From NCBI RefSeq assembly GCF_042678525.1, contig NZ_JBHTKY010000007.1: a DNA stretch of 32,000 bases. One strand, 5' to 3'. Each line of letters starts with the position of its first letter. Position 1 is the stretch's first letter. This DNA is from Sphingobacterium daejeonense (GTDB lineage: Bacteria > Bacteroidota > Bacteroidia > Sphingobacteriales > Sphingobacteriaceae). The position numbers were made by a program, and so were the translations under genes. This document shows positions 13,028 through 19,809 of this stretch, piece after piece. Under the pieces are notes generated by a model, which saw only the letters and a program-made list of their open reading frames with translations, was not told the origin of the DNA and did no database searches.

Positions 13028-15367
13028 ATGTTTAAACGTGTTCGGAACAAATTTTTGCGCATCGCACTGATTGTTATTTACTTTGTTATTTTATTTACGT
13101 GCGCAGTTCAAATTAACTTTCTAGGCTTGTTCGGTTCTTCACCGACAAAAAAAGAAATTTTGTTACCCGAACTAAATGTTTCTTCTGAACTATATACTGC
13201 AGATTCTGTATTGATCGCTAGATATTACAAACAGGATCGGGACCCAGTTCCATTTGACAGTATTTCTCCCAATATTATTAATGCTTTGATTGCAACCGAG
13301 GATGTGCGTTTTATGAAGCATCACGGAGTTGATTTCTTGGGTTTGTTTGGTGGTATTTTTTCAACCTTAAGTGGAAGTGACCGTGGCGCCAGTACTATAA
13401 CTCAGCAACTTGCAAAAAATCTATACAGAACAAGATATCAAGATTCACAAGGTTTATTAGGTAAAATCCCTGGGATAGGTTTGATTGTCACAAAATATAA
13501 AGAGTGGATGACTGCTTTTAAATTGGAAAGCAAATATAGCAAGGAAGAAATATTGACGATGTACCTTAATACAGTTTCCTTTAGTAACAATGCTTACGGC
13601 ATCAAATCGGCATCCGTTCGTTATTTTGACAAATATCCGAGTGATATAACTGTCAATGAAGCCGCTGTTTTAGTGGGTATGCTCAAAGGTACTACTTTAT
13701 ACAATCCAATCAGAAACCCTAAAAATGCCCTGCAGCGAAGAAATGTTGTTTTGGGCCAAATGGCAAAAGAAGGTTATTTGAAACAAGACGAAGTAACAAA
13801 GTTGAGCAAGGATTCCCTAGGTCTTGATTTGAATAATCAAGAAGTGCGAAACTCCAATGATTCTTATTTAAGGAATGCTGTAGAAAAATGGTTGGAGGAC
13901 TGGGCAAAAGAAAATGAGGTTGATATTTATACCAGCGGATTGAAAATATATACTACGATTGATTCAAGAATGCAAAAAATTGCTGAGGACGTGGTAGCCG
14001 TTAAAATGAAGGAGCTTCAGCAAAGACTAGATAATGTTTGGGGTAATGATTTGCCTTGGAGAGACAAAGAAGGGAATGTAGTGCCAAACTTTTTGGAAGA
14101 TCACGCCAAGAAATTACCGAACTATGCCTCTTTAATGGAAAAATATAAAGATGAGGCCAAGGTTTTTGAGGAGCTGAATAAGAAGAAGGACATGGAAGTC
14201 TTTACGTGGGATGGAATGGAAAAGGTAAATTATTCTACCATGGATTCCTTGAAACATTACTTGACCATGTTGAATACAGGCATGATGGCCATGGACCCTT
14301 ACAATGGAGAAATCAAAGTTTGGATTGGCGGAATCCACCACAACTATTACAAATTTGATCACGTGAATCAAGCGAAGCGCCAAGCAGGTTCAACATTTAA
14401 ACCATTTGCCTATGCTGCTGCATTGGAATCAGGTATGACCCCATGTGATAAATTTGAGGATAAACCTGTTAAGATTGAATTCATCAACAACAAGGGTGAG
14501 CACGAAATATGGGAGCCTAAAAATGCGGATTGGTCATTTTCTCACAGTGAGCTGTCGCTAAGACATGCCATGGCTCGTTCATTGAATACTGTTACCGCTC
14601 AAATAACTGAGAAGGTTGGTTGGGATAAAGTTGTAGAAATGGCTCATTTATGTGGTATTGACAGTAAGTTGGAATCAGTTCCTTCAGTAGGATTGGGTTC
14701 AAATGATGTTTCGGTCTTTGAGATGGTACGTGGGTACAGTACATTTATGAATGAAGGTAAGCGAACTGAACCGGTTTTGGTTTCTAGGATTGAGGATAAA
14801 GACGGCAAAGTAATTGCTGAATTCAAGACCTCGACTAAGCAAGCTATTACAGCAGAGAATGCCTGGTTGATGGGATATATGTTGAGGGGTACAATTGAAG
14901 AATCAGGTGGAACTTCACAAGCGTTGTGGGAATGGGATCTGTTTAAGGAAGAAAACCAAATTGGTGGTAAAACTGGTACATCTTCAGATTATGTTGATGG
15001 TTGGTATATGGGTGTTACCAAAGATTTAGTTGCTGGAGTTTGGGTTGGTTGTGATGAACAGAGTATTCATTTTAAAAGTTCTGCTACCGGAGAGGGTTCG
15101 AAAACTGCATTACCTATTTATGCGTTATTTATGGAAGAACTCTATAAGCATCCTGAGCTTGGTGTTACATTGGGTAAATTTCCGGAGGCCAAGGTGGAGG
15201 TAACTAAGAAATATAACTGTCCAGGGCCAAGAATCCGTGTTCGTCAGGATAGTAGTACCGATGAAGGTTTAAATCCAGATGCTGAGATGCCTAATATTGT
15301 TTTACCAGATTTATTAAACCGAGAAGAATCTAATCAACAACAAGAGGAACAAGAGGAAACGAATTAA
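13028..15367 (+). CDS. mrcA: Class A penicillin-binding protein (PBP1A-type bifunctional glycosyltransferase/transpeptidase)
   Basis: GT51 motifs EDVRFMKHHGVD and RGASTITQQLAKN. Transpeptidase motifs STFKP (SxxK), SLN (SxN) and KTGT. N-terminal membrane anchor. Confidence 0.9.
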   Translation: MFKRVRNKFLRIALIVIYFVILFTCAVQINFLGLFGSSPTKKEILLPELNVSSELYTADSVLIARYYKQDRDPVPFDSISPNIINALIATEDVRFMKHHGVDFLGLFGGIFSTLSGSDRGASTITQQLAKNLYRTRYQDSQGLLGKIPGIGLIVTKYKEWMTAFKLESKYSKEEILTMYLNTVSFSNNAYGIKSASVRYFDKYPSDITVNEAAVLVGMLKGTTLYNPIRNPKNALQRRNVVLGQMAKEGYLKQDEVTKLSKDSLGLDLNNQEVRNSNDSYLRNAVEKWLEDWAKENEVDIYTSGLKIYTTIDSRMQKIAEDVVAVKMKELQQRLDNVWGNDLPWRDKEGNVVPNFLEDHAKKLPNYASLMEKYKDEAKVFEELNKKKDMEVFTWDGMEKVNYSTMDSLKHYLTMLNTGMMAMDPYNGEIKVWIGGIHHNYYKFDHVNQAKRQAGSTFKPFAYAAALESGMTPCDKFEDKPVKIEFINNKGEHEIWEPKNADWSFSHSELSLRHAMARSLNTVTAQITEKVGWDKVVEMAHLCGIDSKLESVPSVGLGSNDVSVFEMVRGYSTFMNEGKRTEPVLVSRIEDKDGKVIAEFKTSTKQAITAENAWLMGYMLRGTIEESGGTSQALWEWDLFKEENQIGGKTGTSSDYVDGWYMGVTKDLVAGVWVGCDEQSIHFKSSATGEGSKTALPIYALFMEELYKHPELGVTLGKFPEAKVEVTKKYNCPGPRIRVRQDSSTDEGLNPDAEMPNIVLPDLLNREESNQQQEEQEETN

Positions 15368-15416: not shown

Positions 15417-18400
15417 ATGAGATTTAACCGTCAACTCTTTGCAAGAATATTTAGTTTAAGCCTTGTATTTACCATTTTTTGGACCTTGTTTCCGAATCAA
15501 TCGGAGGCGCAGTATTTTGGTCAGAATAAAATGAGGTACAAGAAATTGGACTTTAAGGTGTATGATACGCCGCATTTTAACATCTATTATTATTTGCAAA
15601 ACGATTCAATGATGAATTGGTTTGCTAAGGAAACAGAGGTGTGGTATGAATTGCACCAGCAAGTTTTCCAGGATACCTTTTTGAGGAAGAACCCCATTAT
15701 TTTATACAATAACCATCCTGAATTCCAACAGACTACGGCTATTTCGGGTGAGATAAGTGTTGGGACAGGTGGTGTTACCGAGGCATTCAAACAAAGGGTG
15801 GTGATGCCGATTATGCAGATCAACCAACAAACAAGGCACGTACTTGGCCACGAATTGGTGCATGCATTCCAATATAGGGTATTAATCGAGGGAGGTGATT
15901 CTACTCGGCTAGAGAATATTGCAAACCTGCCATTATGGATGGTTGAGGGGATGGCAGAATACTTTTCAATTGGTAAAAAAGATGCATTCACATCGATGTG
16001 GATGCGTGATTCATATGCTCGGAATGATCTGCCAAGCTTAAGGCAGATGACAGAGCAATCCAACAAATATTTCCCATATCGCTATGGTCAAGCATTTTGG
16101 TCGTATGTAGGATCTACTTATGGCGATACAGTGATTATGCCTTTGTTTATTGAAACGGCAAAATATGGATATGAGGCGGCAATCCGAAGAGTGTTTGGAT
16201 ATGATGCGCAAACGATGGGAACTCTATGGAAAAATAGCATGGAGAACTCCTACAGAAATCTCGGAAAAGATACGACTTCCAATCCTATCGGTAAATTATT
16301 GTTATCGACAAAGAATGCGGGTAGAATGAATGTTTCGCCGGCAATTTCTCCAGACGGTAAATATGTGGTGTTCCTATCGGAAATGGATTTGTTCAGTATA
16401 GATCTGTTTTTGGCAGATGCTGAAACGGGAAAGGTTGTTCGAAAATTGGGCAGTCGACTCACCAACAAAGATATTGATGAATTTAGTTTTATAGAGTCTG
16501 CCGGAACATTTTCTCCAGACAGCAAGAAGTTTGCATTTTCGGTCTTCAGTGAGGGTAAGAATAAATTGATGATTGTTGACATTGAAACAGGTCGAACCTT
16601 GTCAGTGGAGGCAATGGGTGATATTACTGAATTTACAAATATTACCTGGGCTCCAAATGGTAGTTTGGTAGCCTTCTCAGGTCTTAAAAATGGACGAAGT
16701 GATATCTATACCTATGATTTAGAATCGAAGAGCCTTAGTCAATTGACAGATGATAAATATTCGGACTTTCAGCCAAGTTTCTCGAGAGATGGTAAGTTTA
16801 TTGTTTTCAGTACAGACAGAATGTCTTTGGAGTCATCGAGCAGAAGTGTGGATATTCCAATGGGCTTAGCTGTAGTTGATATTGCGACAAAACAAATCCG
16901 CGAAATTCCTGTCTTTCCAGGGGCTAACAATTTGAATCCTCATTTTTCATCTTCTGGCAAGGAAATCTACTTCTTGTCAAATAGCGACGGATTCAGAAAC
17001 ATGTATAAGATTGTAATCGAAACGGCGCAAGTTGAGAGAATGACTGATTTCTTTACGGGTATCAGTGGTATTACAGAATATTCTCCAGCAATGAGTGTTT
17101 CGGCTAATGATGATATTATCTATTCCTATTTTAAGAATAATGCATTTACCATCTATAAAGCGAAAAGTTCGGAGTTTGAGTCTGTTCCTGTAGATGCAAG
17201 TACCATTGACCTTCAAGCGGCGATGTTGCCTCCGGCACAAAGTAGAGGGGTGGATGTGGTCAATACAAATTTGAATAATTTCAATGCATACGGAAGAATA
17301 TCTAATTCTCAGATTTCAGAAATCCCATATAAGCCAAAGTTCAAATTAGATTATTTGGCGAATAGTGGTGTGGGTATGTCTGTAGGATCACGTTATGGGG
17401 CTGGTATTGCTTCTGGGGTTCAAGGAATGTTTTCTGATATCCTTGGGTACAACCAGATATTTGCAGCATTGAACATCAACGGAGAGATTTATGATTTTGG
17501 AGGTCAAGTAGCTTATATCAACCAGAGGAGCCGATGGAATTGGGGTGGTTCGATTTCCCATATACCTTATCGTTTCGGGTTTTTTAACTATGACCAACGT
17601 GATTTAGGCAACGGAGTAGAACCTGTGTTAGACCAATATTTGGTTCGCTCATTTCAAACTCAGGTCGATGGATTTGTTGCATATCCTTTTAATAGGCACC
17701 ATAGGTTTGAGACAGGTGCCGCGGCATCGTATAACTCTTATCGTGTAGATAGGTTTACCCAAAGTTATTACAACTATTATGGAACACGTGAACGCGTAAA
17801 CAATGATGAGGCAGCACAAGCATTAGGGGTTTCCAACCTGGATCCATTTAACTTGATGCAAGTGAATGCTGGATTTGTGGGTGACAATGCTGTTTTCGGT
17901 ATTGCTGCGCCGCTTCAAGGATTCAGATACAGGCTAGGAGCAGAGCAATATTTTGGAACATTTAATTTTACAGCTCTAAATATCGACTTAAGGAAATATC
18001 AAAGGATAAAACCGGTTACTGTTGCTGCTCGGGTTTACTCGTATATGCGTATGGGGGATGATGCGGACAGATTGTACAATATGTATATCGGATATCCATA
18101 TATGATTCGTGGTTTTGAGGCGAACTCATTCGGCCCTAATAGTATGATTGGTTTCAATGACCTGTCAGGTTCTAAAATGGTGGTTGGGAATTTGGAATTA
18201 AGGTTGCCTTTTACAGGGCCCGAGAAATTGGCTGTCATTCCTTCAGGTTTATTGTTCTCTGATCTGAACTTGTTTATTGATGGAGGTTTGGCTTGGAGAA
18301 ATGGAAGTACGATTAGGTGGAAAAAAACAGATGCTGACAAAGTATCTGAAGTAATCGATGGAGTAACTTATACAGGATATAACCCGAATGTGACGATGCC

Positions 18401-18539
18401 GGTATTCAGTGCTGGAGTATCGCTAAGGGTTAATTTGTTCGGTGCGATGATATTAGAACCTTATTACGCTATACAATTGAATAATCCTACTAGGGATAAA
18501 TTCGGAACATTTGGATTAAACTTTGCGCCAGGATGGTAG
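15417..18539 (+). CDS. Outer-membrane multidomain protein: signal peptide + MA-clan-like HExxH domain + PD40/TolB-type beta-propeller repeats + C-terminal Omp85/surface-antigen (D15) beta-barrel
   Basis: The signal peptide ends ..NQSEA. HELVH lies at aa 145-149 (nt 15849-15863), with downstream WMVEGMAEYF (gluzincin-like third ligand). PD40 repeats are SPDGKYVVFLS, SPDSKKFAFSV, WAPNGSLVAFSG, FSRDGKFIVFSTDR and FSSSGKEIYFLSN. The C-terminal barrel has LRGF, GNLELRLPF and a terminal aromatic residue (..NFAPGW). Confidence 0.7.
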   Translation: MRFNRQLFARIFSLSLVFTIFWTLFPNQSEAQYFGQNKMRYKKLDFKVYDTPHFNIYYYLQNDSMMNWFAKETEVWYELHQQVFQDTFLRKNPIILYNNHPEFQQTTAISGEISVGTGGVTEAFKQRVVMPIMQINQQTRHVLGHELVHAFQYRVLIEGGDSTRLENIANLPLWMVEGMAEYFSIGKKDAFTSMWMRDSYARNDLPSLRQMTEQSNKYFPYRYGQAFWSYVGSTYGDTVIMPLFIETAKYGYEAAIRRVFGYDAQTMGTLWKNSMENSYRNLGKDTTSNPIGKLLLSTKNAGRMNVSPAISPDGKYVVFLSEMDLFSIDLFLADAETGKVVRKLGSRLTNKDIDEFSFIESAGTFSPDSKKFAFSVFSEGKNKLMIVDIETGRTLSVEAMGDITEFTNITWAPNGSLVAFSGLKNGRSDIYTYDLESKSLSQLTDDKYSDFQPSFSRDGKFIVFSTDRMSLESSSRSVDIPMGLAVVDIATKQIREIPVFPGANNLNPHFSSSGKEIYFLSNSDGFRNMYKIVIETAQVERMTDFFTGISGITEYSPAMSVSANDDIIYSYFKNNAFTIYKAKSSEFESVPVDASTIDLQAAMLPPAQSRGVDVVNTNLNNFNAYGRISNSQISEIPYKPKFKLDYLANSGVGMSVGSRYGAGIASGVQGMFSDILGYNQIFAALNINGEIYDFGGQVAYINQRSRWNWGGSISHIPYRFGFFNYDQRDLGNGVEPVLDQYLVRSFQTQVDGFVAYPFNRHHRFETGAAASYNSYRVDRFTQSYYNYYGTRERVNNDEAAQALGVSNLDPFNLMQVNAGFVGDNAVFGIAAPLQGFRYRLGAEQYFGTFNFTALNIDLRKYQRIKPVTVAARVYSYMRMGDDADRLYNMYIGYPYMIRGFEANSFGPNSMIGFNDLSGSKMVVGNLELRLPFTGPEKLAVIPSGLLFSDLNLFIDGGLAWRNGSTIRWKKTDADKVSEVIDGVTYTGYNPNVTMPVFSAGVSLRVNLFGAMILEPYYAIQLNNPTRDKFGTFGLNFAPGW

Positions 18540-18585
18540 TCTAAAGTTATGTGAGGGTGATTTAGTGTAGGGTAAGGTTGTTAAG

Positions 18586-18624
18586 GCCGTTGTTTATAGC
18601 TTATGCATAAACAACGGCTTTTTT
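18586..18624 (+). terminator. Rho-independent terminator after the OMP gene (12-bp stem GCCGTTGTTTAT/ATAAACAACGGC, then TTTTTT)
   Basis: Read directly. The 3' arm and T-run overlap the last codons (KKAVVYA*) of the convergent GIY-YIG ORF. Confidence 0.8.
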
Positions 18625-18924
18625 ATTAGATCTTATTTTTGGTGTATTCGGACATAAGCTCAACCAGTTAGGATTCGCTTTGCGGATCAACCTTTCTTTT
18701 ACAATTCTGCCCATTGATGACAATTCTTTTAACCTCTTTTCTGCATCAGATTGGTTAAGGAATGTTTCTACCAATACAATCCTGTTCAACATGGCATAGG
18801 AAAACAAAGCAGGTTCATGGCTATTTTGCAAGTCATGGTAAACTGAGTTTAAGTCTTGACTAATGCCGGTCTGAAGGAACCTACGGTTCGAATCTGTTGC
18901 GATGTATGTATAGTATTTATTCAT
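18601..18924 (-). CDS. GIY-YIG nuclease superfamily small protein (UPF0213/YhbQ-like)
   Basis: KYYTYIATDSNRRFLQTGISQDLNSVYHDL aligns with the GIY...YIG...R..H core (YVYILtn....LYtGvTnDLerRl.eH). RIVLVETFLNQSDAEKRLKEL....VKERLIRKANPNW aligns with the ..YfE.f....A...Ek.iK.w.r.kK..LI...NP.W tail. Confidence 0.6.
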   Translation of the reverse strand: MNKYYTYIATDSNRRFLQTGISQDLNSVYHDLQNSHEPALFSYAMLNRIVLVETFLNQSDAEKRLKELSSMGRIVKERLIRKANPNWLSLCPNTPKIRSNKKAVVYA

Positions 18925-19035
18925 TTTATTCTTGTTTTAGCTAAATTATTTGGTAATTTGCGGACGTTTTGCTAATTTTATTGGTACAATAATACTAATA
19001 AATTTAGTAATTCAAAAATATATTGAAAAAATATT

Positions 19036-19809
19036 ATGGCAAATATCTCATCAAATCTTAAGTATCTTCGCAAGAAAAAAGGTCTTACTCAGCAACAGTT
19101 TGCTGATTTAATGGAAATTAAACGTGCTTCTGTAGGGGCTTATGAAGAGGATAGGGCGGAGCCAAAATATGAACTACTAAAAAAAATAGCAGAGTTCTAT
19201 GATTTAAGTATGGACGAATTGGCTAATGATGAGATTGATGATAAGTGGAAGCCTACGCCTAAGAGCAATGCTTCAAATTTGAGGGTATTGAGTGTGACTG
19301 TTGATTCGGATGACCGAGAAAACATCGAGCTTGTTCCAGTAAAAGCTAGTGCTGGTTATTTGAATGGTTATGCTGATCCGGAGTATGTGAGTGAATTGCC
19401 GAAATTCTCTTTACCGATGTTTAATCAAGGAACGTTTAGGGCATTTGAAATCAAAGGAGATTCTATGCTGCCATTGCCATCGGGATCTTTGATTATTTCA
19501 GAGTATGTTGAGAACTGGCATGATATCAAACCTGGACAGACATACATTGTTGTGTCGTCCAATGATGGAGTTGTATATAAAAGAATAGGGCAGAAGTTTA
19601 AGGAAGATAAAGGTCTTAAATTAGTTTCTGACAATAAAACGTATGAGCCTTATTGGGTTCCGGCCTCTGAGATTTTGGAAGTCTGGAAGGCAAAGGCTTT
19701 TGTTAGCACGGAGCTTCCTGAGCCAAACCCTGAACCGACTTTAGAAGCATTGTCATCGATGATGGCTCAGATGCAAAAGACTATTAATTCTGTTGTTGAC
19801 AAAAATTAA
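19036..19809 (+). CDS. XRE-family HTH + S24 (LexA/CI-like) self-cleaving peptidase domain transcriptional repressor
   Basis: N-terminal HTH_3 (LKYLRKKKGLTQQQFADLMEIKRASVGAYEEDRAEP). C-terminal S24 core with the catalytic Ser context (FEIKGDSMLP) and Lys context (VVYKRI). Confidence 0.8.
   Translation: MANISSNLKYLRKKKGLTQQQFADLMEIKRASVGAYEEDRAEPKYELLKKIAEFYDLSMDELANDEIDDKWKPTPKSNASNLRVLSVTVDSDDRENIELVPVKASAGYLNGYADPEYVSELPKFSLPMFNQGTFRAFEIKGDSMLPLPSGSLIISEYVENWHDIKPGQTYIVVSSNDGVVYKRIGQKFKEDKGLKLVSDNKTYEPYWVPASEILEVWKAKAFVSTELPEPNPEPTLEALSSMMAQMQKTINSVVDKN

Follow-up and report, generated by a model that had tools for sequence, protein, structure and literature searches.

The non-canonical LexA proteins of Bacteroidetes, described by Sanchez-Osuna et al. 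(NAR 2021; PMC8565304), join an HTH_3 DNA-binding domain to a Peptidase_S24 domain with an Ala-Gly cleavage site and a Ser/Lys catalytic pair, and have an extra terminal helix. Members of the family fall into two groups, binding either GGA-N5-TCC or CTAA-N5-TTAG, with motif divergence accompanying paralogy, and a phage origin has been proposed for the family as a whole (PMC8565304). Representatives of the CTAA-N5-TTAG group include the Pontibacter actiniarum protein WP_025606010.1 and the Sphingobacterium entries given below; in P. actiniarum, EMSA that included mutants of the arms and the spacer demonstrated binding to CTAA-N5-TTAG, and RT-qPCR demonstrated induction by mitomycin C. Regulons of the family average about 9 operons, Sphingobacteriaceae are named for their large CTAA-N5-TTAG regulons, and the exonuclease-GIY-YIG protein COG0847 is among the genes mentioned (PMC8565304). 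Table S5 of that paper gives three sites, CTAATAAATTTAG, CTAATTTTATTGG, and CTAAATTATTTGG, 23 and 31 bp apart, at the regulator gene in Sphingobacterium sp. DR205, and its Table S9 includes the proteins WP_093097901.1 and WP_149525614.1. The paper discusses neither the fixed 23/31-bp operator spacing nor the small gene divergent from the regulator, which is not among the regulated genes of Table S5. The initial annotation of the locus studied here was not aware of a well-characterized canonical LexA regulon for Bacteroidota, a view superseded by the SOS regulator and CTAA-N5-TTAG box published in 2021 (PMC8565304).

Phage lambda resembles the present locus in architecture. Its CI repressor has the same combination of a CI-like multi-helical HTH and a self-cleaving S24 domain, and its three dyad operators, OR1-OR2-OR3, likewise occupy a short control region that lies between the repressor gene and a small divergent gene. 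The spacing of the lambda OR operators is comparable to the ~23 to 31 bp between the boxes described below. However, the strongest site in lambda lies next to cro, whereas here it lies next to the repressor gene, and the lambda partner is a Cro-type HTH protein, whereas the partner here is GIY-YIG-like and the repressor appears to be chromosomal and global rather than part of a prophage. Canonical LexA (COG1974) has in common with this repressor the very probable role in SOS repression, the S24 autocleavage chemistry, and autoregulation, but it uses a winged-helix LexA_DNA_bind domain, which the present protein does not have, and another operator.

The window, a 32,000-nucleotide stretch of a Sphingobacterium daejeonense contig (NZ_JBHTKY010000007.1), contains a 111-bp AT-rich gap between a 107-aa open reading frame (ORF) on the minus strand and a 257-aa ORF on the plus strand. 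The features of the locus are the following.

13028-15367: PBP1A gene
15417-18539, plus strand: gene for a 1040-aa peptidase/propeller protein
18601-18924, minus strand: degenerate GIY-YIG (UPF0213/COG2827-like) gene, 107 aa, divergent from lexA, predicted from its family profile and hhalign
18925-19035, no strand: shared divergent control region, 111 bp, 86 to 89% identical to the closest species
18939-18955, no strand: O3, weaker box AGCTAA-ATTAT-TTGGTA, core 18941-18953, one core mismatch
18970-18986, no strand: O2, weaker box TGCTAA-TTTTA-TTGGTA, core 18972-18984, one core mismatch, 23 bp upstream of O1
18993-19009, no strand: O1, perfect SOS box TACTAA-TAAAT-TTAGTA, core CTAA-N5-TTAG at 18995-19007, 26 bp before the lexA ATG
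19036-19809 (stop included), plus strand: very probable non-canonical LexA gene, 257 aa (Pfam HTH_3 and Peptidase_S24)
19057-19221, plus strand: HTH_3 domain, aa 8-62 (Pfam, 2.8e-15)
19345-19668, plus strand: Peptidase_S24 domain, aa 104-211 (Pfam, 5.9e-8, 32.9 bits against a cut-off of 23.3)
19351-19356, plus strand: Ala106-Gly107 codons, predicted autocleavage bond (K-A-S-A-G-Y invariant)
19462-19464, plus strand: Ser143 codon (G-D-S-M), predicted nucleophile (G141-D142-S143-M144 invariant)
19579-19581, plus strand: Lys182 codon (V-Y-K-R), predicted general base (Y181-K182-R183 invariant)
19693-19806, plus strand: C-terminal extension beyond S24 (aa 220-257, P-E-P-x-P-E-P...M-A-Q-M-Q-K), highly conserved in the alignment
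downstream of the 257-aa ORF, within the window: rimP, nusA, and infB

The plus-strand gene had been read initially as an XRE-S24 repressor, and both Pfam domains bear this out. In place of the LexA winged helix, the N terminus has a multi-helical XRE/CI-type HTH (PF01381), and the winged-helix LexA_DNA_bind domain (PF01726) was not among the Pfam matches of the protein. Across 30 orthologues (72 to 95% identity), the K-A-S-A106-G107-Y, G-D-S143-M, and Y-K182-R motifs were invariant, and the catalytic Ser and Lys expected by the initial annotation are predicted to be Ser143 and Lys182. Searches of PDB sequences with the whole protein, the family profile, and the C-terminal part returned only HTH proteins or noise and no S24 structure; because no S24 structure (LexA, CI, or UmuD) was reached by sequence, the Ala-Gly/Ser/Lys assignment draws on motif and invariance. 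The 38-aa C-terminal extension was strongly conserved in the same 30 orthologues and may correspond to the extra terminal segment described in PMC8565304, whose description it fits. The repressor is the sole Peptidase_S24 match in the 4.07-Mb genome, and with only one S24 protein present, the genome has no UmuD. The closest named orthologue, WP_093097901.1 of S. mizutaii DSM 11724 (locus L008), is 95% identical to the window's repressor and carries the NCBI name "LexA family transcriptional regulator," and WP_149525614.1 belongs to the same 90% cluster. Elsewhere in the genome, an ORF at G000:C13:17056-17256 (225-aa frame) matched the LexA-like profile over its N-terminal HTH part only (E value of 1.6e-12) and is probably an unrelated XRE regulator.

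Taken with the published system, these features make it very likely that the product of the plus-strand gene belongs to the CTAA-N5-TTAG class of non-canonical LexA proteins of Bacteroidetes, with a lambda-CI-like HTH and a self-cleaving S24 domain, and that it is the global SOS repressor of the cell. In common with that group, it has the HTH_3-S24 architecture, the predicted Ala-Gly/Ser/Lys residues, probably the C-terminal segment, and a box in its own promoter. There is no material difference between the two; the window's strain lies outside those assayed in PMC8565304.

On rereading the control region, the coordinates recorded initially for the gap (18925-19035), for TACTAA-TAAAT-TTAGTA (18993-19009), and for an 8-bp palindrome, TTAGCTAA (18937-18944), were exact. 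The 17-mer occurs just once in the window, where 0.09 chance matches would be expected at one mismatch or fewer. The palindrome, which had been listed alongside it, is not above chance: 0.87 matches to TTAGCTAA are expected, and it was found in 56 of 100 shuffles. It overlaps the left half of O3, and only its CTAA, which is the left arm of O3, was kept among relatives; as an 8-bp palindrome, it was not conserved. The related half-sites noted initially are parts of two further boxes of CTAA-N5-TTGG form, O2 and O3. O3 starts 14 bp (core, 16 bp) from the start codon of the small gene. Three CTAA-N5-TTRG sites occur inside 67 bp, compared to 2.7 expected in the whole 32 kb. The sites listed for strain DR205 are letter-for-letter those of O1 (from 18995), O2 (from 18972), and O3 (from 18941), at the same offsets.

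To compare this region among relatives, 80 orthologous loci were collected from Sphingobacterium, Parapedobacter, Olivibacter, Pedobacter, and Daejeonella, giving 81 upstream regions with that of the window. A perfect CTAA-N5-TTAG preceded the repressor ATG in 81/81, always with conserved arms and with variation in the five spacer bases, and in all but one of these regions (L040), the box lay at −34 to −51. As the same motif was validated by EMSA in PMC8565304, O1 is the predicted self-regulating operator of the non-canonical LexA, which agrees with the operator role suggested by the initial annotation for TACTAA-N5-TTAGTA. The distance from O1 to O2 (consensus tTaCTAA.TTTATtgGcACAA) was 23 bp in 80/80 intergenic regions, and that from O2 to O3 was 31 bp in 56/80. 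Three boxes were found in 59 of the 80 and two in 19, mostly from Parapedobacter; it is O3 that is absent in Parapedobacter and some others (19/80). Compared with the closest species, both flanking genes show saturation at synonymous sites (pS of 0.74 to 0.86), and yet the intergenic DNA remains 86 to 89% identical, which indicates strong constraint on the control region.

The exception, L040 (Sphingobacterium sp. FBM7-1, upstream of 2501), is the only orthologue with its perfect box at −123, versus about −40 elsewhere. Its intergenic region, at 195 bp, seems to have gained ~85 bases between the box and the start of lexA.

Searching the genome for the extended box, with gene calls outside the window made by a greedy-ORF heuristic, placed the repressor in a wider network. 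The 17-mer TACTAA-N5-TTAGTA had seven copies at a spacer of 5, versus zero to two at the other spacers from 2 to 9, and all seven were intergenic, 27 to 155 bp before a start codon. Four of the genes that follow encode polymerase or repair proteins: a DnaE2-like Pol III alpha subunit, a Y-family polymerase, a radical-SAM+HHH repair protein, and an RNase_T+GIY-YIG exonuclease. The other three encode a phage-type integrase, an uncharacterized 240-aa protein, and the repressor. The box at the radical-SAM+HHH gene is common to a divergent ligase-associated exonuclease gene. Near-perfect or core boxes precede a PA0069-family radical-SAM gene and recA (TIGR02012, 570 bits), the latter with its box 59 bp away. 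In PMC8565304, the CTAA-N5-TTAG group likewise has its box at recA, dinB/umuC-type, dnaE2, radical-SAM repair, and exonuclease-GIY-YIG genes. The bare core CTAA-N5-TTAG was not overrepresented genome-wide (59 sites, versus 18 to 106 at other spacers), but 20 of the 59 core sites were intergenic versus 6.4 expected; the signal is therefore carried by location and flanks, that is, by the extended 17-mer and intergenic DNA. The presence of the 17-mer at polymerase and repair genes, and of the core box at recA, points to a global SOS regulator rather than a minimal two-gene module.

Two of the perfect 17-bp SOS boxes, at G000:C6:84653-86831 (L003:2654-4832), precede the phage-type integrase gene (407 aa) and the 240-aa gene, and a terminase-small-subunit-like gene comes next; this region resembles an integrated phage-like element that is coupled to the host non-canonical LexA. 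A 946-aa ORF (G000:C10:29554-32412; L006:2555-5412) has a near-perfect box, TGCTAA-AAATA-TTAGTA, right at its predicted start and matched nothing in Pfam, NCBIfam, or PHROG, and it is a candidate SOS gene. The Y-family and DnaE2-like polymerase genes are preceded by separate SOS boxes, and neither has an ImuA-like gene beside it, the upstream neighbors being esterase-like and Exo_endo_phos genes.

Three other accounts of the repressor and its boxes were weighed against these data. The initial annotation had proposed a minimal damage-inducible module, in which the repressor would control only itself and the divergent nuclease-like gene. The divergent pair does stay together across Sphingobacteriaceae where flanking genes change, and three boxes are concentrated in the shared region, but the 17-bp box also stands before error-prone polymerase and repair genes and the core box before recA, published regulons reach about 9 operons on average (PMC8565304), and the repressor family occurs in 72/101 genomes of the class while the small gene was absent in 38/38 loci from other families, within ~1.5 kb upstream. 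A purely local module is very unlikely given this distribution. Still less probable is that the gene is the CI-type immunity repressor of a prophage or mobile element, with a partner in the Cro position and no relation to host SOS. Such an origin would suit the CI/XRE-like N-terminal domain, the best NCBIfam match, which is to the phage RstR repressor family but does not reach the cut-off, the resemblance of the tripartite operator and its divergent setting to lambda OR, and the phage origin proposed for the family in PMC8565304. What speaks against it is the setting: there are no phage genes at the flanks, where genes for PBP1A and a large peptidase lie on one side and rimP-nusA-infB on the other; gene order is stable across 80 species, with rimP 3′ of the repressor gene in 64/80; the repressor is 72 to 95% identical across genera and the only S24 protein of the genome; and its box lies at chromosomal repair genes.

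The remaining account, that the palindromes arose by chance or are simply promoter elements in AT-rich intergenic DNA, is scarcely credible. The region is indeed very AT-rich, about one match to TTAGCTAA is expected by chance, and the short core is common in the genome; judged by eye, the right arms of O1 and O2 in some relatives could overlap TAnnTTTG-like and TTG-like elements. When the Bacteroidetes −33 (TTTG) and −7 (TAnnTTTG) promoter boxes were placed by eye against O1 and O2, the spacings fit poorly in this strain. Neither chance nor promoter function agrees with invariant dyad arms around a variable 5-bp spacer in 81/81 regions, with fixed distances between boxes, with enrichment of the 17-mer at spacer 5 only, or with validation of the motif by EMSA in relatives (PMC8565304).

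Under the preferred reading, that of a non-canonical LexA acting as global SOS repressor, a repressor dimer would bind O1 just upstream of its own start codon and probably also O2 and O3, at the fixed 23- and 31-bp offsets. So bound, the repressor would silence the promoter of its own gene and probably also the promoter of the small gene opposite. Upon DNA damage, RecA filaments would trigger cleavage at Ala106-Gly107 by Ser143/Lys182, and the cleaved repressor would leave its boxes here and at recA, the error-prone polymerase genes, and the repair genes. DNA binding and mitomycin C induction in this scheme are taken from the relatives studied in PMC8565304, and we infer the occupancy of O2 and O3, any cooperativity, the promoter positions, and SOS control of the small gene.

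The small gene lies on the other side of the control region. The window's 107-aa protein had no match in Pfam or NCBIfam. A profile built from 80 orthologues matched the UPF0213 protein BH0048 of Bacillus halodurans (PDB 1zg2) over nearly its full length with an E value of 1.6e-4, and PF01541 was matched by 36/80 family members (best, 3.4e-5), most members being below Pfam thresholds. In hhalign, the family aligned to the genome's canonical GIY-YIG paralogue (G000:C24:240-533) with 98.3% probability and an E value of 2e-14. Compared to UPF0213/COG2827 proteins such as BH0048 and this paralogue, the small family has in common its length, motif order, Y-x-Y-I-L start, Glu, and C-terminal N-P-x-W. 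The resemblance to a GIY-YIG nuclease noted initially therefore stands as homology, but two of the catalytic residues by which the superfamily is defined are missing. In the alignment to the canonical paralogue, the first Tyr (GIY) was present in 76/80 members and the catalytic Glu in 77/80, whereas the second Tyr (YIG) was present in 0/80, the position being occupied by E, H, Q, K, N, or R, and the catalytic Arg was present in 7/80, the position otherwise being T, A, K, Q, or V. Of the features of UPF0213/COG2827 proteins, the YIG Tyr is thus replaced, and the catalytic Arg and the His after it are not conserved, in a family that is fixed beside lexA and has near-invariant motifs of its own, T-D-x-N-R and T-R-M-Q-K-E-R-L-I-R-x-x-N-P-N-W. 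These new motifs suggest that the fold has been retained and the function altered.

Substitution patterns show that this is a real gene under purifying selection, since its pN of 0.12 to 0.37 stands against saturated pS. It evolves 4 to 5 times faster than the repressor, for which pN is 0.03 to 0.09. Public names for relatives of the small protein are mostly "GIY-YIG nuclease family protein" or "hypothetical," and all named relatives are from Sphingobacteriaceae. The product is a predicted catalytically degenerate GIY-YIG protein specific to this family.

Some features around the GIY-YIG genes were recorded separately. The canonical small GIY-YIG (COG2827-type) paralogue (L094), with all catalytic motifs intact, is located close to the end of a contig, with a long GC-rich inverted repeat (L094:45-175) next to it. 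In the window, a hairpin followed by T6 at 18583-18625 (−22.5 kcal/mol, z = −6.9) reads as the terminator of the plus-strand gene for the 1040-aa protein, and it overlaps the 3′ end of the convergent small gene, covering the stop codon and the seven codons before it (K-K-A-V-V-Y-A). This tail is kept in many Sphingobacterium orthologues, and its conservation may reflect the terminator rather than the protein. A paper on Ssn GIY-YIG proteins (PMC11893778) was considered as a comparison for the small gene and rejected as not relevant.

The small gene was divergent from and adjacent to lexA in 79/80 loci, and the 80th locus ends without upstream DNA. The pair also occurs in Mucilaginibacter and Pedobacter, where the other neighbors differ. 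In the class-wide sample, the repressor family was present in 72/101 genomes, including this one (G000). The small gene was adjacent to the repressor gene in 2/2 of the same-family genomes sampled, and in the 38 loci sampled from other families, where the small gene was not found upstream, an exact CTAA-N5-TTAG occurred within 200 bp upstream of 8/38 repressor homologues, with start-codon estimates that are rough. In the loci sampled, the pairing of the small gene with lexA extends throughout Sphingobacteriaceae and is limited to that family. Of the initial suggestion that the two genes are conserved housekeeping neighbors, conservation of the pair was upheld, but only within this family.

In most three-box regions, the core of O3 starts 4 to 30 bp from the start codon of the small gene, which makes SOS control of this gene plausible; because O3 is missing in 19/80 intergenic regions, such control may not be universal. 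The alternative is that the gene is an unregulated neighbor that merely has the intergenic region in common with lexA and still encodes an ordinary nuclease. Consistent with this are its frequent NCBI name, the retained first Tyr and Glu, the regions that lack O3, and its absence from the regulated genes of Table S5 (PMC8565304). It fits poorly with a second Tyr that is never present and an Arg that rarely is, with most members falling below Pfam thresholds, with the closeness of O3 to the start codon, and with a pairing that survives changes in flanking genes. We regard an unregulated nuclease as a serious possibility, if one with the odds somewhat against it, and our best guess is that the protein is induced in the SOS response and has an accessory role, without being an active nuclease.

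Roles as co-regulators or damage-checkpoint effectors are common among the small genes found divergent from lexA in Firmicutes and Actinobacteria. A further analogy, useful as a lead only, is found in Acinetobacter, where the non-LexA S24 repressor UmuDAb controls DNA-damage genes together with a small lineage-specific co-repressor, DdrR (PMC11332147); DdrR is unrelated in sequence to GIY-YIG proteins, unlike the small protein of the window. A more specific proposal, which we put forward tentatively and consider rather unlikely as it stands, is that this small degenerate protein serves LexA as a partner that is under SOS control and confined to Sphingobacteriaceae, being expressed from the O3/O2 side and acting without nuclease chemistry, e.g., as a DdrR-like co-regulator or a damage-checkpoint effector.

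The repressor family, its operator, and its regulon have been known since 2021, down to the three sites in this genus (PMC8565304), and orthologues are already annotated "LexA family transcriptional regulator," so the value of the locus as a discovery is small. Its value lies in an independently checked annotation of the SOS system of this genome, comprising the regulator, three operators, and about ten target operons. Beyond that, the fixed operator spacing is a small remaining lead, and a modest one is the fast-evolving degenerate GIY-YIG protein that is tied to lexA by a three-box region across Sphingobacteriaceae and may be a lineage-specific component of the SOS response.
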